A stretch of DNA of 64,000 nucleotides from Candidatus Yanofskybacteria bacterium RIFCSPLOWO2_01_FULL_42_49. Lineage in GTDB: Bacteria > Patescibacteriota > Minisyncoccia > 2-02-FULL-40-12 > GWA2-44-9. The notes under the pieces are model-generated. The model was not told the origin of the DNA. It searched no databases and saw nothing but the letters and a program-made list of their open reading frames with translations. Both the position numbers and the translations under genes were made by a program. Where the stretch lies: assembly GCA_001795615.1 (NCBI GenBank), contig MGKI01000011.1:44996-108995 (forward strand), given 5' to 3'. Shown here in pieces: positions 6,096 through 23,639 of the stretch (the stretch's first letter is position 1; each line of letters starts with the position of its first letter).

Positions 6096-6096
6096 T

Positions 6097-7740: not shown

Positions 7741-8856
7741 TTACGCTTTATCATTTAATTTTTCAAGTACCTTCTGCCTAAATACTTCAACATCAAACTT
7801 AAGTGCCTGGTCTCGACAGTTCTGGGGGTTGAATTTGTTTGTATCAAAATTCTTTACGACATAGGCAAGAGAATCAACCGTCTGCTCATCAAAAAATAAA
7901 CCGGTTTTATTTTCCACTATGGTTTCAACCGCTCCCCCGCTTCGGAAAGCAATCACTGGCCGGCCAGAAGCCATGCCTTCAAGGGGAACTATGCCGAAAT
8001 CTTCTTCTTGGGGAAATATTAAAGCCTGCGCTTTTGCGTAAAGACTGGATAGCCGGTCGTCAGAAACTTGTCCTAAAAATTCTATATTTTTTGCTTTACA
8101 CTTTTCGCTTTGCGATTTTAATTTTCGAAGTTCTGGACCGACGCCCACGATTTTCAGAGGCAAACCGAGTTTAGAAAAAGCCTTAATCCCAAGGTCAAAT
8201 CGTTTATAAGCGACCAAGCGGCCAACCATAAGAAAATAATTTCCAATTTCCAACCCCCTGGTTAGTGAATAATTTCCAAACTTGAATTTTGAAACATCAA
8301 CCGATGGATAAATAACTTGTGATTCTCGTCCGTAATATTTTTTGATTCTTTCTTTAATAAAATCCGATATCGCCCAGAATTCATCTACCCGATACGAGGC
8401 CTCTTTATCCCACATCCTCAGATAAGATATAAACGGCGGCAGAATGGCTTTAATAACTCGCGGATACCCGAACTCCTCGACAAATTTGTGGCTGTCGTCC
8501 CACAAAAACCTCGGTGGCGTCAGGCAAAAGCAAATATGCTTAGTGGAGGGTTTTGTGATAATACCCTTCGCAAAAGAAGCGGAGAGAGAAATCACCACAT
8601 CAAATTGAGAGAAATCAAACTGCTCTATGGCAAGAGGCATCAATAAAGGAAATCCCCGGTGATATTTTTTAACAAATGGGATTTTTTGCAAAAAAGAGGT
8701 CCTGATGTCCTTCCCCTCAAAAATACCGCCCGTAGTATTCTTGTCATAAAAGAGAGTATAAATGGGGGCATCGGGAAATATGGTACATAAAACCTGAAGC
8801 ATTCTCTCCGCTCCACCGAACTGATTGAGATATTCATGAACAAACGCGATACGCAT
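7741..8856 (-). CDS. Glycosyltransferase family 1 (GT4-type).
   Basis: EDFGIVPLEGMASGRPVIAFRSGGAVETIVENKTGLFF (E-X7-E GT4 motif). 371 aa. Confidence 0.8.
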   Translation of the reverse strand: MRIAFVHEYLNQFGGAERMLQVLCTIFPDAPIYTLFYDKNTTGGIFEGKDIRTSFLQKIPFVKKYHRGFPLLMPLAIEQFDFSQFDVVISLSASFAKGIITKPSTKHICFCLTPPRFLWDDSHKFVEEFGYPRVIKAILPPFISYLRMWDKEASYRVDEFWAISDFIKERIKKYYGRESQVIYPSVDVSKFKFGNYSLTRGLEIGNYFLMVGRLVAYKRFDLGIKAFSKLGLPLKIVGVGPELRKLKSQSEKCKAKNIEFLGQVSDDRLSSLYAKAQALIFPQEEDFGIVPLEGMASGRPVIAFRSGGAVETIVENKTGLFFDEQTVDSLAYVVKNFDTNKFNPQNCRDQALKFDVEVFRQKVLEKLNDKA

Positions 8857-8905
8857 AATGTAGTACGAATACTGCGAATAATTCGTGATATTCGTATTGT
8901 GTTAT
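8857..8905. repeat. ACGAAT-rich leader element, copy A (short form), ending 11 nt upstream of the GT (7741..8856) start codon.
   Basis: aatgtagtacgaatactgcgaataattcgtgatattcgtattgtgttat shares the core with copies B–D. Confidence 0.7.
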
Positions 8906-10287
8906 ACCGCTGAGCGGTCGGTAAATATTTTGAGTACTGTTTTGAGAATAATCTTAATGTCCATCCACAGCGACCAATTCTCAACATAAAATGTATCCAG
9001 TGCCACTTCCTGTTCAAACGGCAGGTCGGAACTGCCGGATACTTGCGCAAGTCCAGTGGCTCCTGCTTTTATCGCCAAGACTTTTTTGTGATGTTTCTGA
9101 TAAAGAGAAATCTCATCCGGCTGATGAGGACGGGGGCCGACCAAACTAATGTCCCCCGTCAGAACATTCCAAAACTGAGGTAATTCGTCAATCCTAAGTT
9201 TTCTTATCAACCTGCCGACTCTGGTTACTCTCGGATCATCTTTTATTTTAAAAAGCGGGCCGTCTTTTCTCTCGTTAAATACCGCAAGCGAAGCTTTGAG
9301 CTCTTCGGCGTTTTTAAGCATAGACCGGAATTTAATCAGTCCGAACTCTTTATTTTTGCTGATTCTTTTCAATCGCACGAACACCGGACCGCTGGAGTCG
9401 AGTTTTACTGTTATGCCCACTGCAACATAGAGCGGAGACAACAGGATAAGGCCTAAGATAGACGCAAGTATATCCATGGCTCTTTTTATAACTTTTCCCC
9501 ATCCGTCCAAACGCGTTCTTTTGAGTTCTATGAGCGGAAGCCCGCCGACAACATCAATGTCAAAATTCGTGGTCAAGGTTTTATACATATTCGGGATATA
9601 TTTAAAAACAATATGATTCTCATGACAAAAGTCTACCAACTCCTGAACATTTCCTTCCGGATAATCCGGATTAGTAAGTAGCACTTCATCTACTGTGTCG
9701 GTGGTCAAAAATATTTTAAGCGCCTGAATATCCGGTTCTGCCAGTTGATGAACAACCCGATAGCCAAGTAAGGGATTCAAATAAATTTCTTCTTTTACTT
9801 GCCTGGCCGCAGCATCATTGCCAATAACAAGAACCTGGTGAATCCCAAAGTTAAATTTTGAAACAGCATAAGTCTGAAAAATTTTAATAAGCATCCTCCC
9901 GACAAAAACGAATATAATTGCCAATAACCAGCCGCCTAGAACGAGGAATCGGGAATTAAAAAGTTCCTGCCTCAAGAAAATATACACAATAATAATCATT
10001 ATGCCCGCCGACGAAGCAATAATTATTTTAGAAAATTCTTCCATCAAGCCCAGACGGTTCTTAAGCGAGTAGAGTCCTGATATAGCATAAGCGCCGATAA
10101 AAATTAAAGAAACAAAAACTACCAAATAAAAATATTTGAGAAGGGGCAGGTTGAATTCAAAAAGCACCGGCCTGAAAGCGGAGATTATCTCAGTCCTTAA
10201 AAAATAAGCGGTAATGCCGGCACTCAACAGCATCACAAAATCAACCGGCAGTCGCAAGACGTTAAAGAAAAGTTCAGATTTCTTCAT
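8902..10287 (-). CDS. Polyprenyl-phosphate sugar phosphotransferase (WbaP/bacterial sugar transferase family), initiating enzyme for a glycan.
   Basis: N-terminal TM helices plus C-terminal LFKIKDDPRVTRVGRLIRKLRIDELPQFWNVLTGDISLVGPRP signature. Confidence 0.8.
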   Translation of the reverse strand: MKKSELFFNVLRLPVDFVMLLSAGITAYFLRTEIISAFRPVLFEFNLPLLKYFYLVVFVSLIFIGAYAISGLYSLKNRLGLMEEFSKIIIASSAGIMIIIVYIFLRQELFNSRFLVLGGWLLAIIFVFVGRMLIKIFQTYAVSKFNFGIHQVLVIGNDAAARQVKEEIYLNPLLGYRVVHQLAEPDIQALKIFLTTDTVDEVLLTNPDYPEGNVQELVDFCHENHIVFKYIPNMYKTLTTNFDIDVVGGLPLIELKRTRLDGWGKVIKRAMDILASILGLILLSPLYVAVGITVKLDSSGPVFVRLKRISKNKEFGLIKFRSMLKNAEELKASLAVFNERKDGPLFKIKDDPRVTRVGRLIRKLRIDELPQFWNVLTGDISLVGPRPHQPDEISLYQKHHKKVLAIKAGATGLAQVSGSSDLPFEQEVALDTFYVENWSLWMDIKIILKTVLKIFTDRSAV

Positions 10288-10365
10288 TCCTCGCCAAAAC
10301 TAGCATAAAACTTGAACTTCTTCAACTGAGTATCCGCGACATTATGCATCAGCTTTATGCCAAAG

Positions 10366-10413
10366 ACTTCGTACCAATTTGTCTCATAACCATGCCGATC
10401 GGAATTCTTATAA
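10366..10413. repeat. 45-nt imperfect-palindrome stem-loop, copy i (TTGTCTCATAA-N21-TTATAAGACAA).
   Basis: ttgtctcataaccatgccgatcggaattcttataagacaa. Confidence 0.7.
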
Positions 10414-10443
10414 GACAACCCAAAAACCCCTTTCGGGGTTTTT

Positions 10444-10873
10444 GGGCCTGTGTTCAATAAGCCGAGTTCTGTCTGGTCTGCCTGTCGGCAGACAGGGGCA
10501 ATCATTTATCTGGGCCGCACATTACTGTGGGGCTCTAGCGAGCTAACTTTTCGAACCAGGCATTTTCTAAGTTTCCAAAGAAAGTGCCTGGAACGCTGCT
10601 CTTGCACTCGAGTAAGGATTTAGCCGTTTCATTCTCAACCTTTTATCCCCGGTTGAGACTAAGCTTATTAATGATTGTATCAATAATTCGGGATCAGCTT
10701 TCCTTCGCCTTTCGGCTCAGGACGTCTCTAATCGCACCTCTCGCATCACTGTGGACGGGTGTTACCCGCTACCCTGCTCCCTTCTTCGCATAAAGCTCCG
10801 AAGGGGAGTGCTCGGACTTTCCTCTCTTGCTTTTGGCGAGAGTAATTGCCTAAAACACAGGATAATTTAATCA
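10444..10873 (-). ncRNA. rnpB: RNase P RNA (bacterial type A).
   Basis: Minus strand carries the 5' P4 strand GAGAGGAAAGTCCGAGC, then GGGAGCAGGGTAGCGGGTAACACCCG (compare E. coli GGGCAGGGTGCCAGGTAACGCCTGG), then 3' CAGATAAATGATTGCC…ACAGAACTCGGCTTATTG (compare TAGATGAATGACTG…ACAGAACCCGGCTTATCG). P1 pairs CCTGTGTT with AACACAGG; P2 pairs GGCAAT with ATTGCC; P3 is ctctc/gagag. Followed by terminator hairpin aaaaacccctttcggggttttt (10422..10443). Confidence 0.8.
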
Positions 10874-10947
10874 TAACATTAAAAAAGTCAAAAAACAAGC
10901 GTTTGTTAGACAAACCCACCAAAGCAAAATGACAAGACAACAAGACA

Positions 10948-10996
10948 CCACTTGTCTCATAATCATGCCGACCGGAGTTGTTATAAGACAAGTTAG
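10948..10996. repeat. 45-nt stem-loop, copy ii, between the PaaX-like gene and rnpB.
   Basis: ttgtctcataatcatgccgaccggagttgttataagacaa. Confidence 0.7.
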
Positions 10997-11008
10997 GTGG
11001 AAGGAAAT

Positions 11009-11542
11009 TTATAAACCAAAGGTTTTTAATAGTTCCTCCTCTTTAAAACCGGCGGACTGAGCGATCAGAATATCTATATAATCGCTCACGCCTAATCTAC
11101 CTGCAATGTCCGCAATTTCTTCCTCACACGGATAAGGAAAAATAAACACACTTTTTTGAATCATTTCAAACCCAAGCAACTTGATTTTCTTTCGAAAATT
11201 AACTCTTTCTTTATGCATCTCTTCCGGAATATCAAAAACGATTAACCGCCATTTTTTATCCCACTTGCCTCTAACTTTATTCTTAAAATATTTTTTTATA
11301 GAAGTATCAAGCCATTTTCGGCCTTTATTTGTAAAAACAAAACAGTCGTTATTTTTGTTTTTTATGATTCCCCGTCGCTCAAGATTTTTAAACCCCACAT
11401 ATTTTTTTCTAGTTTTGTAGCCATAAATATTAAAATCACTATATCTACAACCCTTATAAGGGATCCTGCTCCAGCCGATACCTATATCTCTGACAACATG
11501 GGCAAGTTCTGTTAAAAATTTAATTACAAAATCTCCTTTCAT
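11009..11542 (-). CDS. PaaX-family-like transcriptional regulator (C-terminal domain pattern W-x3-W-x-L-I-V-F-D-I-P-E…R…L…GF…Q-x-S-V-F).
   Basis: WDKKWRLIVFDIPEEMHKERVNFRKKIKLLGFEMIQKSVFIFPYP matches the PaaX C-terminal domain consensus. A Cas2-like fold is also possible. 177 aa. Confidence 0.45.
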   Translation of the reverse strand: MKGDFVIKFLTELAHVVRDIGIGWSRIPYKGCRYSDFNIYGYKTRKKYVGFKNLERRGIIKNKNNDCFVFTNKGRKWLDTSIKKYFKNKVRGKWDKKWRLIVFDIPEEMHKERVNFRKKIKLLGFEMIQKSVFIFPYPCEEEIADIAGRLGVSDYIDILIAQSAGFKEEELLKTFGL

Positions 11543-11545
11543 AAA

Positions 11546-11590
11546 ATTTGTCTCATAAAGGTTCCGATCGGTATTATTATAAGATAATTA
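11546..11590. repeat. 45-nt stem-loop, copy iii, upstream of the PaaX-like gene.
   Basis: ttgtctcataaaggttccgatcggtattattataagataa. Confidence 0.65.
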
Positions 11591-11634
11591 TTAGTAGTTA
11601 CAAATTGATAGTTATAATGTTACAACAACAAATA

Positions 11635-12072
11635 TTACAACGCTAACTTGTTGGTTTCCTTGTCTAAAATCTGGTTGGCTATCCGGTCAGCCTCGATGTT
11701 TTTCTCTCTGAAAATATGTTTGAAAACGACTTCCCCAAAATCAGTTTTTAAGTTCCACACCTCCAGAAAAAGACCCTGAATGTTTTTGTCTTTTACTTTG
11801 TATTCTCCATTCAACTGCCTCTCCAAGAGCTCACTGTCAACATGGATCTCAACCCTTGAGTCCTTTGCTTTCTCGCTGCCAATGAGGTGCTTTAATTTTT
11901 TCAACGCCAAAATGACCGCCTGATATTCGGCTTCATTGTTCGTAACCTCTCCCAGATATTCCCCGCCGTTCTTTTTGCCGATTATTCCCCCCTCCAATGT
12001 AAAACCTGCCGCCGCCGGCCCGGGATTGCCTCTCGCTCCCCCATCGGTATGAATTAAAAATTTATATTTCAT
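11635..12072 (-). CDS. rnhA: Ribonuclease HI.
   Basis: HTDGGARGNPGPAAAGF…TNNEAEYQAVILALK RNase H signature. Start taken at MKYKF (12072), not the upstream M at 12087. Confidence 0.8.
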   Translation of the reverse strand: MKYKFLIHTDGGARGNPGPAAAGFTLEGGIIGKKNGGEYLGEVTNNEAEYQAVILALKKLKHLIGSEKAKDSRVEIHVDSELLERQLNGEYKVKDKNIQGLFLEVWNLKTDFGEVVFKHIFREKNIEADRIANQILDKETNKLAL

Positions 12073-12952
12073 TGTTTTGTTTAACAATTTTCCAAGGAAA
12101 ATCGCATTGACTATTTACTCTAAAACCGGCTGCTCCTTTATGCCCCCCTCCGCCATATTTTTTTGCGATTTCAGAAACATCAACGCTTCCGCCAGATCTC
12201 AAAGAAACAGTGATTTTGCCTTCGGACCAACTCCAAACAATCGCCAAAGGTGGTTTTTCTTTGCACAAAAAGTTTCCCATCTGTGAAGCAAAAAAATGAG
12301 GAGCATTTACAGCATACACTTCGTGTCCCTCGAAAATAACCACTTCTTTATTAGAACTGGTGATATCTTCTATGACTTTATTTTCATACCTCTGAATCAA
12401 TTTGCCTTGTTCAATATATTTACGACGCGTATTCTCGTCTTCAAGTTCTTCGGCCAATTTGCCCCATGTCTCAAAATTCTTATCAAATGTGTCCAGCATT
12501 AAGCCCATGGCAAAAGTGTCTGGCAACTCCAATTTCCACATGTCTCGGTCCCCAATATATCTTAACAACCACGGCACAGATAAATCCGGATAAAAATATT
12601 GCCAAGCGAGAACGGCGCCAGAACGATCCATCTCATAGACGTATTCATGAGCCATTTTAACCGATTCTTCGGCGCTTTTATGGTGGTCTATCACGACAAT
12701 TTTTTTATTATTTTTAACCACTTCGGCCATTACCTCTTTGTGAAAAGAAAAATCAAGAATATAAATTTCTTTATTAATTAAACCGTCGGGTATTAGTTCT
12801 CCGTGGCTGACCCTAAAGTAATCGGCATTCTCGCCAAACTTCTTCCAAGCAGCCCAGGCCGCGCTAAAACCATCCGGGCATTCGCCATGATAGATTATCA
12901 CAACATCTTTGGTAATTTTAAATTTTTGTTCTGTCATTTTGATTTTTGACAT
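12062..12952 (-). CDS. nrnA: DHH-family phosphoesterase (NrnA-like oligoribonuclease/pAp phosphatase).
   Basis: DHH motif VVIDHHKS and DHHA1 GGGGHKGAAGF motif. 296 aa. Confidence 0.7.
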   Translation of the reverse strand: MSKIKMTEQKFKITKDVVIIYHGECPDGFSAAWAAWKKFGENADYFRVSHGELIPDGLINKEIYILDFSFHKEVMAEVVKNNKKIVVIDHHKSAEESVKMAHEYVYEMDRSGAVLAWQYFYPDLSVPWLLRYIGDRDMWKLELPDTFAMGLMLDTFDKNFETWGKLAEELEDENTRRKYIEQGKLIQRYENKVIEDITSSNKEVVIFEGHEVYAVNAPHFFASQMGNFLCKEKPPLAIVWSWSEGKITVSLRSGGSVDVSEIAKKYGGGGHKGAAGFRVNSQCDFPWKIVKQNNEI

Positions 12953-12980
12953 TTAATTTTTGATACTTTCTCCGCTCTTC

Positions 12981-14135
12981 CTACTGCGCTGACTTATAGT
13001 ATCCCAATGCTTCAAGCCCCGGCAGTTTTTCTCCGGCCAAGAATGCCAGCATTGCTCCCCCGCCGGTGGAGACGAAGTTTCCGCCAGAGGCGGATCCGCC
13101 TTCGGCGGAAAATTTATCAAAAATTTTGAATTTTGAAACTGCAGCAATTGTATCACCACCCCCGACTATTTTGTAAGCTTTGGACTCAACGATAGCTTCG
13201 GCAATTTTCTGGGTACCCATAGCAAAAGCCGAATTTTCAAAAAGTCCCATCGGCCCGTTCCATATTACCATAGACGCACCACCGATTGCATCAGCATATC
13301 TCTTTATCGTCTTTTCTCCTATATCAAGTATCTTATTGTCAAAAACAACAAAATCCTCCGGAATTAGAAGCTGGGAACTATCCAGGTCAAGACCAGCAAG
13401 AAGCTCCTTTGAATTCTCGTCCACAACTGAACTGCCCATGTCCTGGCCTTTTTCTTTAAGCACATCGTTTGCAACTACGCCACCAAGCAATATCTTTTCG
13501 GCTTTGTCTACAAAATTCTTGATAACCGACACCTTTGTTTCCGTTTTCGCTCCACCGATAATTATTATCTTTCCTAATTTAGAAGCATAAATTGCTTTTC
13601 GAAGTTGAACCGTCTCTTCCTGCACCAATAATCCGGCAAAACTTGGCAAAAATTCGGTTATGGCTGATACGGAAGCGTGGTCGCGATGACAAACCGCAAA
13701 ATTGTTATTAATGTAAATATCAAACCCCTTTGATAAGCTCAGGGCAAGCCCTTTATCATTTTCTTTTTCTCCGGATCCAGCAACTGCCGGATTGCGAATA
13801 TTATCCAAGAGACCGACACCCGGGTAGTTAGCAAGGTGCCCTTCAATGTCTTCGATATTTTTGATAAATACCACTTCGCGTCCCAGAAGGATATGAAGTT
13901 GGGGAATAAGATTGGAAAAAGAACTATCATCTTCGTGAAGGTGGGTAATCATTACCACCTTAGCTCCACGCTCAACTAGCCAGTCAATCATCACCTTTTG
14001 TTTCTTAATTCTAAACGATTCCGTGATTTCAGTAGCACACCCGCCTTCGCCAAGGCTTCGGACGGGCATGTCAAAATCAACCCTTAATAAAACTTTTTTG
14101 TTTTTTAAATCGGGAATATCGAGGACAGTTTTCAT
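12981..14135 (-). CDS. pgk: Phosphoglycerate kinase. Carries a 30-nt in-frame palindromic insertion (SAEGGSASGG) near the C-terminus.
   Basis: KKVLLRVDFDMP…GGGDTIAAV…STGGGAMLAFLAGEKLPGLEAL PGK signatures. 384 aa. Confidence 0.9.
   Translation of the reverse strand: MKTVLDIPDLKNKKVLLRVDFDMPVRSLGEGGCATEITESFRIKKQKVMIDWLVERGAKVVMITHLHEDDSSFSNLIPQLHILLGREVVFIKNIEDIEGHLANYPGVGLLDNIRNPAVAGSGEKENDKGLALSLSKGFDIYINNNFAVCHRDHASVSAITEFLPSFAGLLVQEETVQLRKAIYASKLGKIIIIGGAKTETKVSVIKNFVDKAEKILLGGVVANDVLKEKGQDMGSSVVDENSKELLAGLDLDSSQLLIPEDFVVFDNKILDIGEKTIKRYADAIGGASMVIWNGPMGLFENSAFAMGTQKIAEAIVESKAYKIVGGGDTIAAVSKFKIFDKFSAEGGSASGGNFVSTGGGAMLAFLAGEKLPGLEALGYYKSAQ
13080..13109. repeat. 30-nt GC-rich double mini-hairpin, in frame within pgk.
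   Basis: tccgcc-aga-ggcgga tccgcc-ttc-ggcgga, encoding SAEGGSASGG relative to canonical PGK. Confidence 0.8.
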
Positions 14136-14935
14136 AAAATTTTTGAAACAGTGGCTAAAATTTTTACAAACTCTTCTTTATTTACACTTGCACCGCCTAC
14201 CAAAACACCGTCAAATTGATTATTTTGTAAAAATTCCCGGGCATTAGCAGAAGTGATGGAACCGCCATATAAATAGGTCTTAGGTTTTAGGTTATAGGTT
14301 TTAGATAAAACTTCTTTGATTATAAATATTGACTCCGCAGCACTTTCGGGGGTATCGGAACGGGCGCCGGGAGTCGTGCTTATCGCCCAGACCGGCTCAT
14401 AGGCAATGATACACCGTGTGACTTCATCAGCCGAAAGACCGGCAAAAGTTGCTTCGACTTGTTTTTTTATGAAATCCTTCCAGCCGGAGGCTGGTTCGCC
14501 TTCGGCGGAAAAATCTCTTTCTCTCTCGCCTATGCAGACTATCGGTACCATTTCATTCCTTAAGACGGCCTTAAGTTTTTTATTTACCGTTTCGTTAGAC
14601 TCGTTTAACTTCCATCTTCTTTCGGAGTGGCCAACAATGACATATCCCACACCGAGTTTGCACAACATCGATCCAGAGACCTCGCCGGTTAGAGCCGTTT
14701 TGTCGTCTATCGATATGTCCTGCGCGCCAAGTTCCGCCTGATGTTCCAAGTGTGATGTTTTTAAAATCTTTCCGACTTCCTCAGTAAAAACAAAGGGGGG
14801 ACAAAATATCAGTCCGAATCTTTCGGCTTCCGATAAAGAACCGAGGTATTTGTCAGCCGAATCCAGAATCTCGACCGCTTCGGCCAGCGAATCGGGATGA
14901 TTCTTCCAATTGGCCACAATCAGTTGTTTAGTCAT
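14132..14935 (-). CDS. tpiA: Triosephosphate isomerase. Carries a 30-nt in-frame palindromic insertion (SAEGEPASGW).
   Basis: ANWKNHP…VGHSERR…CIGE…YEPVWAISTTPG TIM signatures. ATGA overlap with pgk. Confidence 0.9.
   Translation of the reverse strand: MTKQLIVANWKNHPDSLAEAVEILDSADKYLGSLSEAERFGLIFCPPFVFTEEVGKILKTSHLEHQAELGAQDISIDDKTALTGEVSGSMLCKLGVGYVIVGHSERRWKLNESNETVNKKLKAVLRNEMVPIVCIGERERDFSAEGEPASGWKDFIKKQVEATFAGLSADEVTRCIIAYEPVWAISTTPGARSDTPESAAESIFIIKEVLSKTYNLKPKTYLYGGSITSANAREFLQNNQFDGVLVGGASVNKEEFVKILATVSKIL
14480..14509. repeat. 30-nt GC-rich double mini-hairpin, in frame within tpiA.
   Basis: ccagcc-gga-ggctgg ttcgcc-ttc-ggcgga, encoding SAEGEPASGW. Confidence 0.8.
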
Positions 14936-15554
14936 GAGTTAAGTGCCTCTTTGTTTTATGGCGATATATATACCATATTACCAAAACAATCAACAAAACG
15001 GCCAAAATATAATTAAACTTTTCAAAATAAGTCAGCAATTTTTGAATATAGTCATCCGCTTTAAAACCGACATAGACATACAAAAAATTGAGAGGCATTG
15101 ATCCTAAAAAAGTAAAAAGCGAAAACTTTGATAAGTTCATTCTTGATATGCCGGCTGGAATCGGAATAACACTTCGCGAAGAAGGCAAGACATAGCCCCA
15201 AAAAACGATTTTATCGCCGTATTTCAAAAACAACCTATCTAAATGCCCAAGTTCGTGTTGAGTTATCAAAAAATACTTTCCATACCTTTCTAAAAACGGC
15301 CTGCCACCCTTCATAAAAATGAAATAAAGAGCCAGATTGCCAAAAAAGTTGCCAAGAGTCACCCACACCATAACGGGCCAAAAAGAAAATTTTCCCTGGC
15401 CGACAAGTATCCCGAAAGCCGGCAAAATTATTTCCGCCGGAATAAGAAATATGGTTAACCTATCCAAGAGAGATGCCCAAAAAACACCGGCGTAGCCAAG
15501 AGATCCAAGAAATCCGACAGCTTTATCTATGGAAGAGGACAGAATTTCAAACAT
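14928..15554 (-). CDS. DedA/TVP38-family membrane protein.
   Basis: Polytopic, with DedA-like G-x3-F…R-x-(F/L) pattern (KGGRPFLERYGKYF). 208 aa. Confidence 0.55.
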   Translation of the reverse strand: MFEILSSSIDKAVGFLGSLGYAGVFWASLLDRLTIFLIPAEIILPAFGILVGQGKFSFWPVMVWVTLGNFFGNLALYFIFMKGGRPFLERYGKYFLITQHELGHLDRLFLKYGDKIVFWGYVLPSSRSVIPIPAGISRMNLSKFSLFTFLGSMPLNFLYVYVGFKADDYIQKLLTYFEKFNYILAVLLIVLVIWYIYRHKTKRHLTHD

Positions 15555-15569
15555 GGTTCAACAAGCTCA

Positions 15570-16598
15570 CTATAAATTAGTTTCTCTTAACAATTTTGCC
15601 GCTTCGTCCGGATCAACCGTATTTACAAACACGTTCGTCCCCAGCTCCATTCCCGCCGCAATGGAAAAACGAGGCATTATCTCAATGTGCCAGTGATAAA
15701 AATCATAAAGACCGGAACTGTCCTTTTTAATCGGCGAAGTGTGGACGAAAAATGTGTAGTCGGGGTTGTTAAGCGCAACATACAACTTTTTTAAAGTCTT
15801 GTTTAAAATTTCCGCCAAGAGCATAAAATCTTCATCTTTTGTATCCCCGAAATTGGAATTTTTCTTTTTGGGGAATATCCTTACCTCATAAGGAGTGCGG
15901 CTTACGAAAGGACAAAGGGCAATAAATTTTTCATTTTCGTAAATAATTCTTTTGTTCTGGTCTGCCTCCCACTCTAAAAGCATCTCATGGATTTTCTCCC
16001 CCGTTCTCTCAAAAAATTCTTTCGCTCCTTTAATATTCTTCAAAATACCCGGCGGTATTATGGGCATGGATAAAATCTGGGAATGGTTGTGGTAAACAGT
16101 TGCCCCGGCGAAGAAACCGTGATTGTGAAATATCAATACATAGTCACCGCATTCGTCTTGAGATATGGAGTTGTACCGGTCTTTATAAACCCTAAGCACT
16201 TCCGCCGTTTCTTCGTCCGTAAATTGAGCAAAACTTTTATCATGGTCACGGGTAATAACAAGCTCATGGAATCCAAAACCGTCTGCGACTAAAAAGGGGC
16301 CGATGTTCCGAGGCGGCACGCAAAACCCGTCGGCAAGAGCCGGATACTTATTCTTTACAACTTGAGTCGTCCACTCCCTGGCAGATTCCTTTTCCCAGAC
16401 AACTTTTTGACCTTTATTGTAAACAAGAATCGGATCTCTATGGTCTGACCTTTGGGGATCTTCAAAGGGACAGGTTTCTTTGTCTTGATAAAGCTGACTA
16501 TGTTTAGTGGTCTCTTGGGGACTTGGTTTTTTAGCTCTTTCGGTAGAAATTAAAACCCAGTCGCCGGAAACAATATCTTGTCGGAATTCATTGAGCAT
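15570..16598 (-). CDS. galT: Galactose-1-phosphate uridylyltransferase (HIT-family GalT).
   Basis: FHNHGFFAGATVYHNHSQILS (H-x-H-x-Q), CPFVSRTPYEVRIFP, HWHIEIMPR. 342 aa. Confidence 0.7.
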   Translation of the reverse strand: MLNEFRQDIVSGDWVLISTERAKKPSPQETTKHSQLYQDKETCPFEDPQRSDHRDPILVYNKGQKVVWEKESAREWTTQVVKNKYPALADGFCVPPRNIGPFLVADGFGFHELVITRDHDKSFAQFTDEETAEVLRVYKDRYNSISQDECGDYVLIFHNHGFFAGATVYHNHSQILSMPIIPPGILKNIKGAKEFFERTGEKIHEMLLEWEADQNKRIIYENEKFIALCPFVSRTPYEVRIFPKKKNSNFGDTKDEDFMLLAEILNKTLKKLYVALNNPDYTFFVHTSPIKKDSSGLYDFYHWHIEIMPRFSIAAGMELGTNVFVNTVDPDEAAKLLRETNL

Positions 16599-16610
16599 CG
16601 CTTCGCTTGT

Positions 16611-16695
16611 GTAATACGAATTTTACAAATATCACACGAATACTGCGAATAATTCGTGGTATTCGTATACCATTCGTAGTATTCAGATTATGTTA
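16611..16695. repeat. ACGAAT-rich leader element, copy B, between GT2 and galT, ending about 12 nt upstream of the galT ATG.
   Basis: gtaatacgaattttacaaatatcacacgaatactgcgaataattcgtggtattcgtataccattcgtagtattcag. Confidence 0.8.
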
Positions 16696-17430
16696 ATCGT
16701 ACTTGCCAGTCATCAGATTCCATCTTATTTTAACTGTTTCCATAAGAACTTGGAAATACGCTTTTAGGCCGACATGGGACTCGGCGGCATTTTTCCAATC
16801 AACGGGAACTTCTTTTATCTTGTAGCCGAACTTCCTTGCCAAAGCAAGCACCTCGACATCAAATCCCCATCTTTCAATCGTAAGTTTGGGAAATATTTTC
16901 TCTGCCGCTTCGGCAGTGAAAAGTTTAAATCCTCTTTGGGTATCATTTATCCCGGGCACAGCCATAATTTGAATGAATAAATTGCCCATTTTACCAAAAA
17001 GACGGCGCCAGGCCGGTTCGCTTCCGGCGGCAACTTTATGGCCTGAAATAGCTATGGAACCGATAACCACTGAGTATCCTTCGCTTATATAAGGAATGAA
17101 CTTCTCCAAATGGTCCATAGAAGTTGAGTTATCAGCATCAGTGAAAAGACGCAGATCGCCGCTTGCTTTGGTCATGCCTTGCTTTACAGCATAACCCTTG
17201 CCACGGTTTATTTCGTAATCAAGAAGTTGAAGTGTTGAAAGCTCGGTTTTTAACAAACGGACAATATCATTGGTCTTATCTTTTGATCCGTCGGTAACAA
17301 CTAAAATTTCATGATCAATGTTTTTATCTTTCAGATAACAAAAAATGGGCCTGATAGTCTTTTCAATATTCTTCTCCTCATTGTAAGCAGGAATGATGAC
17401 GGATAAAAACATATAAATTATAATAACCAA
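16693..17430 (-). CDS. Glycosyltransferase family 2 (dolichyl/polyprenyl-phosphate sugar synthase-like).
   Basis: MFLSVIIPAYNEEKNI…VVTDGSKDKT…DADNS GT2 motifs. Contains a degenerate copy of the mini-hairpin insertion (AAGSEPAW). Confidence 0.8.
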   Translation of the reverse strand: MVIIIYMFLSVIIPAYNEEKNIEKTIRPIFCYLKDKNIDHEILVVTDGSKDKTNDIVRLLKTELSTLQLLDYEINRGKGYAVKQGMTKASGDLRLFTDADNSTSMDHLEKFIPYISEGYSVVIGSIAISGHKVAAGSEPAWRRLFGKMGNLFIQIMAVPGINDTQRGFKLFTAEAAEKIFPKLTIERWGFDVEVLALARKFGYKIKEVPVDWKNAAESHVGLKAYFQVLMETVKIRWNLMTGKYD

Positions 17431-17643
17431 CGGTCAATATCTAATACCAAATAACCAATAACCAACATCCAATAAAACAATTAAAAAATATTTTAAATAA
17501 CCAAACCCGTAATTGTTTTAAACATTATATAATCGTTTATTTATTGGTTATTGGTGATTGAATATTGGTTATTTGTTAATTATTCAGTAGCTTTAATCTA
17601 TCACAATTTGACCCTTTATTCAAACTCGCATAATCTTAATTGA

Positions 17644-18522
17644 ATGACTGGAGAAATTGCTCAAATACCTCTCGATAACAAATACTACCCAAAATTACTG
17701 GCTCAAATTCCTGACCCTCCGAAAAAATTGTACTGCCGGGGAAACTTAAATCTGCTGGACAGCGAATGTTTTGCCGTAGTCGGAACAAGAAAATTAACTT
17801 CTTACGGGAAAGAAGCTGCGCAAAAAATCACCACTGGTTTGGTTCAGTCCGGATTTACAATAGTAAGCGGGCTGGCAATGGGTATTGACGCCGTGGCCCA
17901 TCAGACGACCTTAAATAACGGCGGCAAAACAATTGCCGTGCTGGGAGGCGGGGTTGACGATAAAAGCATTGGCCCTCAAATAAATTTTAAGTTGGCAATA
18001 GATATTTTAAAAAATCACGGTCTAATAATATCCGAGTATCCTGAAGGATTTCATGCCAACGAAAAAACCTTCCCTCAAAGAAACAGGATAATAAGCGGGC
18101 TATCGAGAGGCATATTGGTTATTGAGGCAGACGAGAAAAGCGGAGCGTTAATAACCGCTCACTGCGCCCTTGATCAAAACCGTGATGTTTTTGCCATACC
18201 GGGAAGTATTTTTTCTTCCAAGTCATTCGGACCAAATGAACTAATTAAAAGGGGGGCGAAATCGGTCACATCGGTTCAGGATATAATCGACGAATATGGT
18301 TACAACTTGAATATTTTTGATAAAAAGCGTAATACTATATCCACAAATAATCCTGTCGAGAAAAGTATTATTGCTATACTTGAAGAGAAGGGGGAAGCCA
18401 CCATGGATGAAATGATAAGAGAATCTGCGGAAGAAACTTCAAAAACAATCGCGACAATATCAACACTTGAAATGCGAGGAATAATAAAAGAAACGGGAAA
18501 TGGAAAATACAGAATAGCATAA
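17644..18522 (+). CDS. dprA: DNA processing protein DprA/Smf.
   Basis: AVVGTRKLTSYGKEAA…IVSGLAMGIDAVAHQTTL…TIAVLGGGVD Rossmann-like DprA core. 292 aa. Confidence 0.8.
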   Translation: MTGEIAQIPLDNKYYPKLLAQIPDPPKKLYCRGNLNLLDSECFAVVGTRKLTSYGKEAAQKITTGLVQSGFTIVSGLAMGIDAVAHQTTLNNGGKTIAVLGGGVDDKSIGPQINFKLAIDILKNHGLIISEYPEGFHANEKTFPQRNRIISGLSRGILVIEADEKSGALITAHCALDQNRDVFAIPGSIFSSKSFGPNELIKRGAKSVTSVQDIIDEYGYNLNIFDKKRNTISTNNPVEKSIIAILEEKGEATMDEMIRESAEETSKTIATISTLEMRGIIKETGNGKYRIA

Positions 18523-18523
18523 A

Positions 18524-18592
18524 TATAATACGAATGCCACGAATAGTTATTCGCAGTATTCGTGTGATATTCGTAGAATTCGTATTACACTT
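18524..18592. repeat. ACGAAT-rich leader element, copy C (opposite genomic orientation, same orientation relative to transcription), ending 5 nt upstream of the topA ATG.
   Basis: Reverse complement gtgtaatacgaattctacgaatatcacacgaatactgcgaataactattcgtggcattcg matches B and D. Confidence 0.8.
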
Positions 18593-18594
18593 TA

Positions 18595-20906
18595 TGAATC
18601 TAGTCATCGTTGAGTCACCTACAAAAAGTCGCACAATTTCAAAATTCCTTGATAGGAGTTTTTCGATTCGCGCTTCCGTCGGCCATATTCGCGATCTTCC
18701 TAAAAGCAACAAAAAAGCCGTCGATATCAAAGGGGGGTTTATCCCCCATTACGAAATAAGCGAAGGCAAGAAAGACATCATTGATGATCTTAAAAAAACC
18801 GCCGCAAAGGCCGATGAAATTTATCTGGCTACTGACCCTGACAGAGAAGGTGAAGCAATCGCATGGCACATTGCCCAGGTATTAAACCTGGGAAACTCTA
18901 AATCCGACAGAGATTCCCGGCTTCACACGGGAACCTTTTCCAAGCAAACTCTAAACTCTAAACAATCTCAAATCTCAAATCTCAAATCTCAAAAAATTAA
19001 ACGAATTGTTTTTCACGAGATTACAAAAGAAGCTATACAGGAAGCACTCAAGCATCCTCGTGAAATAGATAAAAAACTTGTAAAAGCGCAGGAGGCGCGA
19101 CGAGTACTCGACCGTCTGGTTGGTTATGACTTATCCGGGTTGATTTGGAAAAAGGTGCGTTACGGACTTTCCGCGGGCCGGGTCCAGTCGCCGGCTCTTC
19201 GCATTATTGCCGAGCGCGAACGCGAAATCCAAGCTTTTAAAAGCGAGGATTATTACATTATTACCGCTGATGTTTTTGGAGGGAATAAGACAGTATTTCA
19301 AGTTACCTGCGAAGATCAGCCTAAAGACGCGAAAATCGCTGAAACCATTCTGGCTAAGAGTAAAACCGGATCATGGTTCGTCAAAAATATTGAAGAAGGA
19401 GAAGCTAAGCGTTCGCCTAGATCACCTTTCACCACATCAACCCTGCAGCAATCTGCGAGTTCGCGTTTGGGATTCTCTCCGTCCCGAACCATGGGCATAG
19501 CCCAAAAACTATATGAACAGGGCTACATCACCTATATGCGCACCGACAGTTTAAATATCGCCTCTTCCGCCCAAGGACAGATTGTAAACCTGATTGAGCA
19601 AAAATACGGCAAACAATATGCCGAGCCAAGAACATATAAGACTAAGAGCAAAAGCGCTCAAGAAGCCCACGAAGCAATCCGGCCGACAAATTCAGCTAGA
19701 GAAATCGCCGGCCACACCGAGGAACAAAAAAAGCTTTATCGCCTAATCAGGGAAAGAACAATCGCCTCTCAAATGGCCGATGCTAAAATTTTGCGAGCCA
19801 AGATAACAGCAAACACCAGAGAAGGGGGTATCCCCGATTTTGCCACAACCGGTTCAAGGGTTCTTTTTGACGGCTGGCTGGCTTGCGATACCAGAGCCAG
19901 AGGTGAAGATATAGAATTGCCGAAAGTCGTTAAAGACGAGCCGCTCACCTTGAAAGACATAATCAGTGAAGAAAAACATACCGAGCCGCCGCCCCGTTAT
20001 ACCGAGGCTGGCCTTGTTAAAGAGTTGGAAAAGCGCGGAATCGGAAGACCGTCTACTTATGCTTCTATTATTAAAACTTTGTACGATAGAAAATATGTAG
20101 AAAAAGAAGGTCGGGCGCTTAAACCGACAGACACAGGAGAAGTTGTCAGTTCTTTCCTTGAAAAAAATTTTATGGCCTATATCAATGACACTTTTACAGC
20201 TGAAATGGAAGACGAACTTGACGATATAGCAACCGGCAAAAGAGACTATGTTAAAACCCTCCAGGATTTTTACGTGCCTTTTCATAAAGATGTTAAAGCC
20301 AAAGAAAAAATAGACAAGCTGACCAACCTCGGTGCAGCGCCAACAAAATGGAAATGCCCGGAATGCGGCAATGCCATGATAATTAAACTTGGCAAGAGCG
20401 GGAAATTCATGAGTTGCGAACGATATCCGGAATGCAAAGGATCTCGTCGTATTGACGGTTCGGTGGTAGAGCCAAACAAACCTATCGGGACCGATCCGAA
20501 AACCGGCCTGCCAATCTTTGTTATGGAAGGAAAATTCGGACCTTATGTTCAAATCGGAGAAACCCATTCGACAAGCTCAGGGCAAGATATTAAAGAAAAG
20601 GTAAAGCCAAAAAGAGCAAGCGTCCCCAAAGGCAAAGACCCGGCAACGGTCAGTCAAGAAGAAGCTCTTAAATATTTAAGCCTGCCCCGCATACTCGGCA
20701 CTCACCCGGAAACCGGAAAAGAAATCGTTGCCAATATCGGCCGTTTTGGGCCTTATATTATGCACGACGGTGACTTTCGATCGCTTAAAAAAGATTCCGG
20801 AGATAATGTTTACACGATTGAACTATCCCGTGCCCTTGAAATATTGAAAGAAGAGAAAAAGATCGGGCGCCGAAGAAAAATTGAAGACAAGAGCGAAAAA
20901 CATTGA
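18595..20906 (+). CDS. topA: DNA topoisomerase I. Has a low-complexity in-frame insert (…KQTLNSKQSQISNLKSQKIK…) and C-terminal Zn-ribbon repeats.
   Basis: MNLVIVESPTKSRTISKFL Toprim start. RVLDRLVGYDLSGLIWKKV. CPECG/C-x-RYPEC zinc ribbons. Start taken at ATG 18595 rather than the upstream alternative start at 18534. Confidence 0.9.
18947..18996. repeat. In-frame heptamer microsatellite in topA (ctctaaa ×2, ctcaaat ×4).
   Basis: caaactctaaactctaaacaatctcaaatctcaaatctcaaatctcaaaaaa. Confidence 0.85.
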
Positions 20907-20940
20907 AAATTACTCCCAAAAGAGTAATTTTCTTTTATAC

Positions 20941-22671
20941 ATGGAAGGTCTATTATCAAAAATCTTAGAGAGTCCCGGGGGCGCTAAAAATCCTGCTTTG
21001 TTAGAGAAGGCTTTTCAATTTGCCGAAAAAGCTCATGCCGGACAAAAACGGCTATCCGGAGAAGAATACATCGTCCATCCTCTGAATGTGGCTAATTTTC
21101 TGGCCGAACTCGGGCTTGATCCCTCAACCATAGCGGCTGGCTTCCTCCACGATGTTTTGGAAGATACGAAAATTACGCTTGAAGAACTTAGAAAAGAATT
21201 TGGCGAAGATATCACTTTTTTGGTTGAAGGCATGACAAAATTAAGGAAAATATCCGATGCGGCCAACAAAGAAGAAAGCGTTCACAGGGGCCACTTCAAC
21301 TCGCTTAAAAAAATGTTCTTCGCTACCGCCGAAGACATCAGGGTAATCCTAATCAAGCTGGCTGATAAATATCACAACATGGAAACCCTCAAATTTATGT
21401 CCAAACCCGACCAGAAAAGAATTGCAACAGAGACGCTGGAGATATACGCTCCCGTAGCCGCTCGGCTTGGAATGGGACGACTAAAAGGCCAGCTTGAAGA
21501 TTTGGCTTTTCCGTATGTATATCCAAAAGAATATTCCTGGCTTTTAAAAAAAGTAAAAGAAAAATATACAGACAGAATTGATTATATTGAGAGGACAAAA
21601 CCTCTCATCAGAAGATATCTCAAAGACGCTGGAGTTCCAGTCATTGATCTACATTCAAGAGCAAAACATTATTACAGCTTATATCAAAAGCTCGAGAGAA
21701 AAGAAATGGACTTGGACAAAATACACGACCTGGTCGCAATGAGAATAATCGTTCCCGACATAAAGTCATGCTATGAAGCGTTGGGCGTAATACATAAACA
21801 CTACAAACCCTTGCCCGGCTTGATAAAGGACTACATAGCGCTTCCCAAGCCAAACGGATACCAGTCACTCCACACTACAATATTTTGCGAAAAAGGACGG
21901 CTCGTCGAAATACAAATACGCACAGAAAGTATGCACGACTACGCCGAAAACGGTATCGCCGCCCACTGGGCCTATGGCGAGAGCGGGAAAAAAGCTCCGG
22001 TATCGGCTAATGCCAGAGAAATCGAATGGGTTTCGCAACTGAAAAGATTTCTGGAAGAACAAAAAACCGAGGACGGGCTGTCGAACCTCAAAATCGATTT
22101 CTTCAAAAACCGAATATTTGTTTTTTCCCCAAAAGGCGATGTAAAAGATTTGCCTGAAGGCGCGACTCCGATTGATTTTGCTTATGCGATCCACACCGAC
22201 CTCGGCCATGCTACCAAGGGAGCAAAAATTAACGGCAAGATCGTTTCTCTGGACTATGAGCTGAGGAATGGCGATGTGGTTGAGATAATAAAGGGAAAAG
22301 AAAAAAAACCGTCATTTGACTGGCTGAAAATAGTTAAAACAGCAATGGCTAAAAAATCTATTTTATCTTGGTTTAGAGAAACTGGGGACGTTAGAGTAGA
22401 AAAAATTGAAGACAAACCAACCAAGCGTAAAACACAAACCGGAAAACGAAAAGCAAATGTGGCCATGATAAAAACCGGCGAACTCTTGATAGCCGGCCAG
22501 CGGGGACTTCTCTATAAAATAGCCAGATGCTGCAACCCGACCCCGAACCAAACAATAAAGGGATACATGACGCTCACCAAAGGAATAAGCATCCACAATC
22601 ACAACTGTTCAAACATAAAAAACGCTTCCGAAGCTAGACTGGTAAGCGTTTTGTGGGAATCAAAAAAATAG
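20941..22671 (+). CDS. relA: Bifunctional (p)ppGpp synthetase/hydrolase (RSH; RelA/SpoT).
   Basis: HD hydrolase HPLNVANFLAELGLDPSTIAAGFLHDVLEDT, synthetase domain, TGS region and C-terminal ACT-like region. Start taken at ATG 20941 (MEGLLSK); the track start at 20881 is TTG. Confidence 0.85.
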   Translation: MEGLLSKILESPGGAKNPALLEKAFQFAEKAHAGQKRLSGEEYIVHPLNVANFLAELGLDPSTIAAGFLHDVLEDTKITLEELRKEFGEDITFLVEGMTKLRKISDAANKEESVHRGHFNSLKKMFFATAEDIRVILIKLADKYHNMETLKFMSKPDQKRIATETLEIYAPVAARLGMGRLKGQLEDLAFPYVYPKEYSWLLKKVKEKYTDRIDYIERTKPLIRRYLKDAGVPVIDLHSRAKHYYSLYQKLERKEMDLDKIHDLVAMRIIVPDIKSCYEALGVIHKHYKPLPGLIKDYIALPKPNGYQSLHTTIFCEKGRLVEIQIRTESMHDYAENGIAAHWAYGESGKKAPVSANAREIEWVSQLKRFLEEQKTEDGLSNLKIDFFKNRIFVFSPKGDVKDLPEGATPIDFAYAIHTDLGHATKGAKINGKIVSLDYELRNGDVVEIIKGKEKKPSFDWLKIVKTAMAKKSILSWFRETGDVRVEKIEDKPTKRKTQTGKRKANVAMIKTGELLIAGQRGLLYKIARCCNPTPNQTIKGYMTLTKGISIHNHNCSNIKNASEARLVSVLWESKK

Positions 22672-22676
22672 GAAAT

Positions 22677-23549
22677 CTAGTCGATGATCGACTTGGCGAT
22701 CTCGTTGAGGTCTTGGAGAGTAGTGAATCGGATGACTATCTTGCCGCCTTTTTCAGCCGCGTGAATAAGTACCGGAGCCTTAAGCGTTTCGCTCAAGTTC
22801 TTTTCAAGTTCCAAGAATTTATTATCAATTTTCGACTTCCTGGTATTGCTCTTGCGAGAAGAAGCAATGCTTTCAACCTCCTTTGATGAAACGCCGCCGG
22901 CCAATATCTGCTTGTACATCTCTCTCTGCTTTCCTTCATCACTGAAAGCAAGAAGCGCCCGCGCATGAGCACGACTTAATTTACCGGAGCGCAACGATTC
23001 TTTTATGTCTTTCGGCAAGCCAAGCAAACGAATTGCATTAGCGACGACCTCTCTTGATTTAGAAACTTTTTCGGCAATTTCTTTTTGGGTTAAATTAAAT
23101 TCTTTAGAGAATCTGTCATACGCTTCCGCTTCTTCAACGGGGTTCAGATCCTTTCGCTGGATATTCTCTATAAGCGCAACTTCGAGATTAGCTTTGGGCT
23201 CTTCAAGATCGTCCCTGATAATAACCGGGACATGAGGCAAACCAGCGGCTTTGGCCGCCCTTAACCTTCTTTCTCCGGCGATTAACTGGTAGTAAACATT
23301 TAAACCCTGCCTGTTTTCTTCTTCAACTTTTGAAACTAAAAGGGGCTGTAAAACTCCGTATTTTCTTATTGATTTAGACAGTTCTTTCAGCCCGTCATCA
23401 TCAAAATCGTGCCTCGGCTGTTCGGGATTTGGCCTTATCTTGTTTACTTCAACATAAAAAACGCTGTCCTTTTTTACTTCAGGAATTATGTGTTTAGCGT
23501 CGGGAATCAACGAGTTTAAACCTTTACCTAATCCAAATAACTTTTTCAT
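22677..23549 (-). CDS. parB: Chromosome partitioning protein ParB/Spo0J.
   Basis: LIAGERRLRAAKAAGL ParB box plus HTH. 290 aa. Confidence 0.85.
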   Translation of the reverse strand: MKKLFGLGKGLNSLIPDAKHIIPEVKKDSVFYVEVNKIRPNPEQPRHDFDDDGLKELSKSIRKYGVLQPLLVSKVEEENRQGLNVYYQLIAGERRLRAAKAAGLPHVPVIIRDDLEEPKANLEVALIENIQRKDLNPVEEAEAYDRFSKEFNLTQKEIAEKVSKSREVVANAIRLLGLPKDIKESLRSGKLSRAHARALLAFSDEGKQREMYKQILAGGVSSKEVESIASSRKSNTRKSKIDNKFLELEKNLSETLKAPVLIHAAEKGGKIVIRFTTLQDLNEIAKSIID

Positions 23550-23550
23550 A

Positions 23551-23637
23551 AATGTAATACGAATTCTACGAATATCACACGAATACTGCGAATAATTCGT
23601 GGTATTCGCATATTATTCGTTATATTCGTATTATGTT
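23551..23637. repeat. ACGAAT-rich leader element, copy D, between parA and parB, ending 4 nt upstream of the parB ATG.
   Basis: aatgtaatacgaattctacgaatatcacacgaatactgcgaataattcgtggtattcgcatattattcgttatattcgtattatg. Confidence 0.8.
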
Positions 23638-23639
23638 GA

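Follow-up and report, generated by a model that had tools for sequence, protein, structure and literature searches.

Bacteria of the candidate phyla radiation (CPR) have tiny, dense genomes with almost no experimentally defined expression signals. On a contig of Candidatus Yanofskybacteria, a member of this group, a 64-kb window (the whole stretch of DNA analysed here) contains several copies of an ACGAAT-rich intergenic element, each adjoining a start codon. This raises the question of whether the element is a regulatory signal, such as the promoter/leader cassette or operator proposed in a preliminary description of the sequence, or an insertion that has spread between genes. We examined the window together with the 10 kb beyond it (74 kb in all), and flanking genes were identified with Pfam. 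The sequence comparisons point to a dispersed, recently inserted family of palindromic repeats rather than to a conserved regulatory site, a reading that we consider very probable. The element looks somewhat promoter-like, but it acts more like a mobile palindromic spacer than like a conserved regulatory site.

Four palindromic copies between co-directional genes

The preliminary description had reported four ACGAAT-rich copies with a fixed length of 75 nt. On reading the window, all four were present at the sites given. The coordinates had to be adjusted to the exact gap-filling extents listed below, and the lengths actually range from 45 to 94 nt.

8857-8901, minus strand: copy 1 (c1), short form, two distal and two proximal CGAAT-core units; junction between the sugar-transferase stop codon (8902-8904) and the start codon (8854-8856) of a family 4 glycosyltransferase (GT4), minus strand
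16599-16692, minus strand: copy 2 (c2), 4+4 units, of which one ACAAAT and one ATTCAG are degenerate; junction between the GT2 stop codon (16693-16695) and the GalT-like start codon (16596-16598), minus strand
18523-18593, plus strand (inverted): copy 3 (c3), two distal and four proximal units around a 4-nt centre; junction between the dprA stop codon (18520-18522) and the topA ATG (18594-18596), plus strand
23550-23639, minus strand: copy 4 (c4), full 4+4 palindrome with unit spacing 9, 11, 9, then 7 across the centre, then 9, 11, 9; junction between the parA stop codon (23640-23642) and the parB ATG (23547-23549), minus strand

As had been stated, the flanking genes are co-directional in every case (sugar transferase followed by GT4, GT2 by GalT-like, DprA by TopA, and ParA by ParB), and the element occupies the whole gap between the two genes in 4/4 copies. 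All four also share one orientation relative to transcription (distal ...ACC-ACGAAT, proximal ATTCGC-AGT...), in agreement with the preliminary description; the chance of 4/4 is 1/8. All the copies fall within 15 kb around parAB; the remaining ~59 kb examined contain none, and a search for a further copy in the 10 kb beyond the window found none. The ParB encoded in the window matches a protein of Candidatus Yanofskybacteria RIFCSPHIGHO2_01_FULL at 100%.

The copies are clearly related to one another. Identity is 89% over 88 nt between c2 and c4, 98% over 46 nt between c3 and c4, and 95% over 44 nt between c2 and c3, and a 33-nt core common to c1, c2 and c4 is 94-100% identical. The core pattern ACGAAT-N4-CGAAT-N1-3-ATTCG-N4-ATTCG had five matches in the window and none in 100 shuffles. 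The bare hexamer ACGAAT showed no window-wide enrichment (50 occurrences against 41.8 expected).

The partial palindromy noted earlier was borne out, as each copy is an imperfect palindrome with two to four CGAAT-core units per arm. In mRNA sense the order is stop codon, 6-15 nt to the beginning of the first unit, the distal arm (ACGAAT units), the centre, the proximal arm (ATTCGN units), ATTAC, 3-12 nt, and ATG. The distance from the end of the element to the ATG had been put at 4-12 nt; measured from the last unit, the values are 8, 17, 10 and 9 nt for c1 to c4. Copies differ in the length of the centre, which would form the loop (1-4 nt), and in that of the second spacer (4-13 nt). The termini read (C/T)A(T/C)AAT...ATTACA in the window and GCGAT...ATCGC in other CPR genomes. 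Periodic arrays and palindromes were surveyed with Tandem Repeats Finder (TRF) and a tolerant palindrome scan; a strict exact-word search for periodic palindromes recovered only c4 in the window. On c3 and c4, TRF reported period-9 arrays with only 72% matches and 13% indels; the units have variable spacers and fall into two inverted sets.

The window copies are predicted to fold into hairpins on both strands, with dG values of -15 to -37 kcal/mol and z scores of -2.7 to -7.5. With Rfam covariance models at the gathering score, only two tRNAs were found in the window and no family fits the element. A permissive Rfam search of the element gave only sub-threshold matches to generic hairpins (miRNA precursors).

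Turnover at orthologous junctions

We read the three orthologous junctions in syntenic parA-parB-relA-topA-dprA-GT2-galT loci from 12 relatives. With the identity of their ParB to that of the window, these are:

L141 and L142 (ParB 74-75%, the most distant): gaps of 0-10 nt at all three junctions
L119, L145 and L146 (85%): ATGA overlaps at all three junctions
L121 (83%): parA-parB gap of 2 nt; GT2-galT with a palindrome of ATTACG/CGTAAT words
L120 and L140 (83-85%): diverged ACGAAT-type inserts at some junctions, a palindrome of TAAAAT/ATTTTA words at others
L122 (79%): (GATTTAY)3...(TAAATCT)3 at parA-parB; (GTTGTAG)3-4 at GT2-galT
L143 (89%): (AAGTTTAT)3...(ACGAACTTT)3 at parA-parB, then ATT at the aligned start position
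L147-149 (86%): (GACTAAG)...(CTTTAGAC) at parA-parB, then TTG

The element is thus polymorphic for presence and absence: junctions are empty in L119, L121 (at parAB), L141, L142, L145 and L146, and filled in the window, L120 and L140. From these junctions, tight or overlapping in several relatives, the most distant ones included, we infer that the tight junction is ancestral and that the spacers are insertions. The same family fills several junctions within one genome, and the word differs between genomes, with arm-to-arm complementarity always kept. The spacers built of unrelated words are each predicted to fold as a single long hairpin with evenly spaced small mismatches (z -2.2 to -9.2). 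Changes that preserve pairing, including wobble pairing, were also found: CGAAT/ATTCG has become CAAAT/ATTTG in L120, and ACGAAT stands opposite ATTTGT in L140. A gene for RNase III is present in the syntenic loci of relatives.

The operator suggested in the preliminary description finds no support in these data, as the site is lacking at the orthologous junctions of close relatives, its centre spacing varies between 1 and 4 nt, and its word is replaceable. Loss or word replacement at orthologous junctions argues that no conserved operator or regulon site is involved.

The word and its layout in other genomes

A scan for the core pattern in one genome per species gave at least 118 loci, where our own estimate, which assumes 596 Gb read on both strands, 21 bases specified and three possible gap lengths, is about one. 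The matches listed include the CPR lineages Moranbacteria, Falkowbacteria, Doudnabacteria, Saccharibacteria, Liptonbacteria, Zambryskibacteria, Brennerbacteria and Paceibacterales, and, from other phyla, Planctomycetota, Bacteroidota, Chloroflexota, Elusimicrobia, Auribacterota and Acidobacteriota. Within the CPR the layout is strikingly constant, namely GCGAT-(NCGAAT)2-4-centre-(ATTCGN)4-ATCGC with spacing 9/10-12/8-9, ending 2-17 nt before an ATG. Genes downstream of CPR copies, recognized by reading their N-termini, include fusA, tuf, nusA, hpf, rplK, ferredoxin and rpmC. For 14 of 19 CPR copies, a gene begins no more than 45 nt away on one side; 10 of the 19 fill the space between a stop and a start codon, and none lies between convergent genes. 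Where the gap is long (L081, L083, L021), the element lies at its start-proximal end. The proximal arm is also fuller than the distal one (means of 3.7 and 3.1 units; Wilcoxon p = 0.045, for copies that are not independent). An Acidobacteriota metagenome-assembled genome (MAG) carries dozens of copies in a manner resembling repetitive extragenic palindromic (REP) sequences: of 50 copies, 15 are in convergent gaps and 14 at gene ends.

Metagenome contigs scanned with the window core returned c1 itself, a single CPR copy that precedes a short gene, and seven chance matches in coding DNA; the same scan yielded a near-identical copy at the rplP-rpmC junction of a relative, on two contigs. In a control scan of viral contigs, ACGAAT gave one match and three permuted words one or two each, which is uninformative as to any privilege of CGAAT in bacteria. 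The non-CPR loci, which had been retrieved because of an ACGAAT match, contain periodic palindromes of other words too.

Start codons adjoining the element

The four genes had been described as lacking a Shine-Dalgarno (SD) sequence, and this was borne out (anti-SD duplex dG of +0.6 to -1.4 kcal/mol). However, 34 of the 55 window genes are similarly SD-less. The true start of topA is the ATG at 18594 (MNLVIVESPTK) and not the start of the longer open reading frame (ORF). In another assembly of the same species (L151, 8498), GT4 is called 18 codons downstream (8802 in the window, in place of 8856), after the SD-like GGAGCGGAGAGA. This call removes the conserved N-terminal GGAE motif, and the ATG at 8856, which abuts the element, is the more plausible GT4 start.

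Many window genes without SD sequences carry a TAnnnT box 6-7 nt before the ATG (27921, 29808, 37773, 56680 and others), examples being TAGTAT-7-ATG for rpsP, TGTTAGAAT-6-ATG and TGATATAAT-6-ATG. The presence of these boxes suggests that leaderless mRNAs are widespread in this CPR genome. In the relatives, the codon aligned with the parB ATG is ATT in L143 (~5790) and TTG in L147-149 (L147, 1034) and in L122 (10001). These ATT and TTG starts go with palindromes of words other than ACGAAT, and all spacer-free genomes have ATG.

A putative intercistronic hairpin and its alternatives

We propose that one repeat family has been copied into formerly gap-free junctions between genes of Yanofskybacteria that are presumably co-transcribed. 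In this model one arm is an array of CGAAT-core units with a period of 9-11 nt and the other arm is its inverted copy. As the arms are inverted copies of each other, the operon transcript, or single-stranded DNA, could fold into a long imperfect hairpin, with its base a few nt past the stop codon of the upstream gene and 3-12 nt short of the SD-less start codon. A spacer of this kind may be tolerated, and possibly useful, by folding out of the way and so keeping the stop near the start, and it could punctuate the mRNA through processing, stability or re-initiation. The sigma-70-like hexamers of the proximal arm are probably a by-product of the unit sequence and may add internal transcription in copies 2-4. 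Between lineages it is the architecture (palindromy, periodic units and abutment of the start codon) that persists and not the sequence, and we therefore take the primary mode to be structural. The word-independent complementarity of the arms, the tolerated variation in loop length and the compensatory changes favour a hairpin in RNA. In its full form, that of a co-transcribed intercistronic hairpin, tolerated or used, that keeps stop and start close and punctuates the mRNA, we judge the proposal to be evenly poised between right and wrong.

Several points weigh against it. For 12 of the 15 copies oriented by a gene, folding is predicted to be more stable in the antisense than in the mRNA-sense strand, and selection for a sense-RNA hairpin predicts the opposite. 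Palindromy and covariation cannot separate an RNA hairpin from symmetry at the DNA level or from an origin by inverted duplication. The conservation of CGAAT cores, unit spacing and the terminal GCGAT...ATCGC across distant CPR classes is a hint of sequence-specific recognition, and the fuller proximal arm likewise hints at recognition by polymerase, a binding protein or a mobilising enzyme, beyond a structural model. The model leaves unaccounted for the conservation of the CGAAT word and of the 4+4 layout across distant lineages, as well as the clustering within 15 kb around parAB. With respect to insertion, no target-site duplication was found by eye around the four copies, where short or degraded ones may have escaped, and no transposase or autonomous partner element turned up in the 74 kb, in which no dedicated search was made. 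A broader formulation would regard periodic palindromes as a class defined by structure and not by sequence that keeps arising or being renewed exactly at CPR stop/start junctions, and in some non-CPR genomes, as SD-independent restart modules. The CGAAT family, with its 4+4 layout fixed across CPR classes and a word common to other phyla, would then be read by a conserved candidate factor such as polymerase, a ribosome-associated protein, an RNase or a mobilising enzyme. As a joint claim we consider this distinctly unlikely.

The promoter-like sequences in the proximal arms are:

23563-23592, minus strand: sigma-70-like pair of c4, TTCGCA (23592-23587), 18 nt, TAGAAT (23568-23563); the -10 ends 13 nt before the parB ATG
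16620-16649, minus strand: sigma-70-like pair of c2, TTCGCA-18-TAAAAT, proximal arm; the -10 ends 21 nt before the ATG
18550-18579, plus strand: sigma-70-like pair of c3, TTCGCA-18-TAGAAT, proximal arm; the -10 ends 14 nt before the topA ATG; TGGAAA-17-TATAAT (18501-18529), which matches better, stops at the element's 5' edge

According to the promoter/leader proposal, the proximal arm is an outward sigma-70-type promoter, with the -35 TTCGCA in unit 1 and the -10 TAGAAT where units 3 and 4 meet, and the distal arm is dispensable; the downstream gene would receive its own short-leader, SD-independent transcript. The pair TTCGCA-18-TAGAAT holds as described for c3 and c4 and, with TAAAAT in place of TAGAAT, for c2, and the same pair occurs in the rpmC copy of the relative. 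c1 has its TTCGCA only 16 nt from the ATG and no -10; it cannot be such a promoter. The only two mismatches of the inner stem set TTCGCA on the gene-ward arm against TTCGTG on the mirror arm, and the more complete arm, with about four units in most oriented copies against two to four in the distal arm, usually faces the start codon. In agreement with a promoter, the element is start-proximal in the long gaps mentioned above, a terminator-like hairpin directly upstream of the element in L081 leaves little other room for a nusA promoter, and many starts in the window appear to be leaderless or to have short leaders. On the other hand, 13-21 nt separate the -10 from the ATG, a distance of only 6-7 nt in the window's clear leaderless genes; the -35 is weak and the spacer 18 nt long; and the mirror arm scores alike by symmetry (23605-23634). 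The hexamers of c2-c4 reach 9/12 matches, a level at which the region as a whole does not exceed shuffles (43 matches against 38.6 expected). The tuf and hpf copies of other CPR genomes have no usable -10 or pair and have better promoter-like matches upstream. Palindromes of unrelated words at the same junctions lack such a pair, and some are followed by TTG or ATT, which are poor starts for leaderless initiation. The proposal is partly supported: the hexamer pair in three of four copies speaks for it, and c1, the -10 distance and the lack of enrichment speak against it. Promoter activity of some copies is possible but would not be general, and as an account of the element we think it unlikely.

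A functionless origin would dispense with any role in expression. Slippage-prone replication and inverted duplication would make palindromes in any gap, and gene conversion would spread them, as selfish DNA or as a mutational by-product. The genomes are rich in 7-nt arrays, some 26-34 per 100 kb (by TRF, about 34 in the window, 26 in Yanofskybacteria relatives and 29 in other CPR loci), arrays are found in frame inside genes as well, the words at one junction are lineage-specific, and those of L143 resemble the 5' coding sequence of the neighbouring parB. Heptamer arrays have been ascribed to polymerase slippage (Mrazek et al. 2007, as relayed in PMC4679880). Against birth in situ, the spacer and flank sequence is common to the four copies (89-98%), which argues that they were copied, and the same architecture across CPR classes, the start-proximal position in long gaps and the asymmetric orientation of the arms also speak against a by-product; we hold this origin to be rather improbable. 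Nearly invariant CGAAT cores with variable spacers, units about one helical turn apart and a symmetric 4+4 layout would also suit a multi-site array on duplex DNA for a CGAAT-recognising protein, whether a global regulator, a ribbon-helix-helix centromere or repressor protein, or a mobilising enzyme. The occurrence of the word in many phyla far above expectation, and the grouping of all four copies around parAB in a window in which no canonical parS was found, are in line with this. Such an array is difficult to reconcile with empty junctions in relatives whose ParB is 85% identical, with unrelated words as replacements, with a centre of 1-4 nt and a second spacer of 4-13 nt, with downstream genes that share no function, and with the Acidobacteriota MAG, in which the same word makes REP-like repeats mostly at the 3' ends of genes; we regard it as very improbable. 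To an intrinsic terminator of the upstream gene we give almost no credence. A consensus scan flags a hairpin with a T-run inside c4 (plus strand, 23580-23608) and inside c3 (minus strand, 18556-18537), but both sites are antisense to the flanking genes, the sense-strand hairpin has no U-tract behind it, and the evident terminators of this genome are GC-rich hairpins of a different family. Of these explanations, the dispersed insertion with a predicted hairpin remains the one that we prefer.

Some more specific identities were tried and rejected. The element is unlike the conserved 16-bp parS palindrome, and ParB proteins 85-89% identical to that of the window go with other words or an empty junction. 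Likenesses to a Fur/Zur-like 7-1-7 centre, LexA, NrdR, the DnaA box and uptake sequences were dropped because of the variable centre spacing, the absence of word enrichment and the lack of conservation of the sites in relatives. At parB, a 10-codon frame runs from a conserved RTG, which follows proximal unit 2, to an ATGA, an arrangement that might have indicated coupling through an upstream ORF; the frame relation differs at topA and galT, and we attribute it to chance. A 77-bp inverted repeat of P. gingivalis (PMC3969353) is unrelated, the resemblance being merely that of primers starting with ATTCGT.

Other repeats in the window

An array of a word related to ACGAAT occurs at a further gap:

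51228-51255, minus strand: (ATTCGTA)x4.6, period 7, filling a 28-nt gap and abutting the ATG of the gene at 50700-51227

Here the related word is used as a plain heptamer array. Arrays of 7 nt lie in many other gaps (for example 5968-6100, 17436-17599, 27960-27997, 29372-29480, 40941-41101 and 43156-43329), with words such as TTAGAAA, ATTGGTT, TAAATCC and ATTTGGA, often as inverted sets around GC-rich terminator hairpins or upstream of -35 regions. Inside genes, an in-frame heptamer array in topA at 18946-18993, (AAACTCT)2.6(AATCTCA)4.3, encodes 'KQTLNSKQSQISNLKSQ' between the Toprim and Topoisom_bac domains, and (TAGGTTT)4.4 at 14274-14304 encodes 'KTYNLKPKTYLY' in frame in TIM.

A GC-rich double-hairpin repeat, TTTCCGCCAGAGGCGGATCCGCCTTCGGCGGAAA, is intergenic and terminator-like at 35196-35232, 41003-41039 and 43217-43253. 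It also occurs in frame within PGK (13075-13111), as 'FSAEGGSASGGN' inserted before STGGG, and within TIM (14475-14511), as 'FSAEGEPASGWK', which recalls the Rickettsia palindromic elements found inside ORFs. A 160-nt composite cassette of word arrays, GC hairpins and again word arrays is duplicated with 94% identity at 40942-41101 and 43156-43315; rplK lies downstream of one copy, and an unannotated 250-aa ORF downstream of the other. There is overlap between the second copy and the longest-ORF start of the 250-aa gene, so that the real start of this gene is probably further downstream.

A palindromic repeat of about 43 nt, TTGTCTCATAA...TTATAAGACAA, is present in four copies (10376-10418, 10949-10991, 11545-11587 and 36129-36171), three of which lie around a 500-nt non-coding stretch and a small gene of PaaX_M/Cas2-like type (11009-11542). 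At the beginning of the window, a 477-nt tandem repeat (3.4 copies, 98% identical, 2688-4321) lies within a large repetitive region (1-4500), which is probably the gene of a giant repetitive surface protein.

Significance

Palindromes built of short units appear to have split formerly overlapping gene pairs repeatedly and adjoin the SD-less starts of housekeeping genes across many CPR classes. In genomes of this kind, the element offers a testable handle on translation initiation and on the punctuation of operons. It also marks a very rapid turnover of intergenic sequence, in that genomes whose ParB is 85-89% identical differ in the word found at a given junction. Should it be only a selfish repeat, it would still matter for annotation, as gene callers misplace the adjoining starts, GT4 being called 18 codons short.

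Relation to known systems

The Correia elements of Neisseria (CREE/NEMIS) are dispersed palindromes of about 100-150 bp that lie by genes, are often co-transcribed, and form hairpins cut by RNase III. Some copies carry outward promoters, and presence or absence varies between strains. They have 26-bp terminal inverted repeats, a TA target duplication and a non-repeated internal segment. As in Correia elements and miniature inverted-repeat transposable elements (MITEs), the ACGAAT copies are short and near-identical (89-100% in their common parts), the whole element is an inverted repeat, and its presence is polymorphic. Unlike a Correia element, it consists of two arrays of 5-6-nt units, shows no target duplication, as far as was found, and spans many CPR classes.

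REP sequences and bacterial interspersed mosaic elements (BIMEs) are short imperfect extragenic palindromes in many copies, transcribed within operons, with effects on mRNA stability and with REP-associated tyrosine transposases (RAYTs). The CGAAT palindromes of the Acidobacteriota MAG are similar to these, whereas the copies in the window lack the conserved GTAG head and adjoin start codons and do not lie mainly at 3' ends or in convergent gaps. No RAYT gene turned up in the sequence examined, and no genome-wide search was made.

Phage T7 has related RNase III processing hairpins between cistrons, just before the next initiation region, and the ACGAAT element is likewise repeated between cistrons upstream of the next start. 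The T7 sites differ in preceding SD-led genes and in having a characteristic internal loop; cleavage of the ACGAAT hairpin is only proposed. Near-identical segments upstream of unrelated genes of one genome were reportedly described by Matus-Garcia and colleagues in 2012 as 'putative mobile promoters'. That concept is built on promoter function; for the ACGAAT element such a function is only putative, and impossible in one of the four copies.

The closest published description that we found is that of the TAACTGA heptamer repeats of marine Beggiatoaceae (MacGregor 2015, PMC4679880). These are concentrated between genes and mostly lie a few nt upstream of start codons without a canonical ribosome-binding site; the genes that follow have no common function, ribosomal proteins included, and the distribution across phyla is patchy. 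The same paper cites long simple sequence repeats and the short tandemly repeated repetitive (STRR) sequences of cyanobacteria. The ACGAAT element resembles the TAACTGA repeats in its short period and its position just before SD-less starts, in a window that is itself rich in 7-nt arrays. In contrast to those contiguous direct heptamers, its units are spaced at 9-11 nt with variable spacers, and they form two inverted arrays that can make a hairpin. In type, the ACGAAT element is a hairpin insertion of the REP/MITE/Correia kind with an STRR-like internal periodicity.

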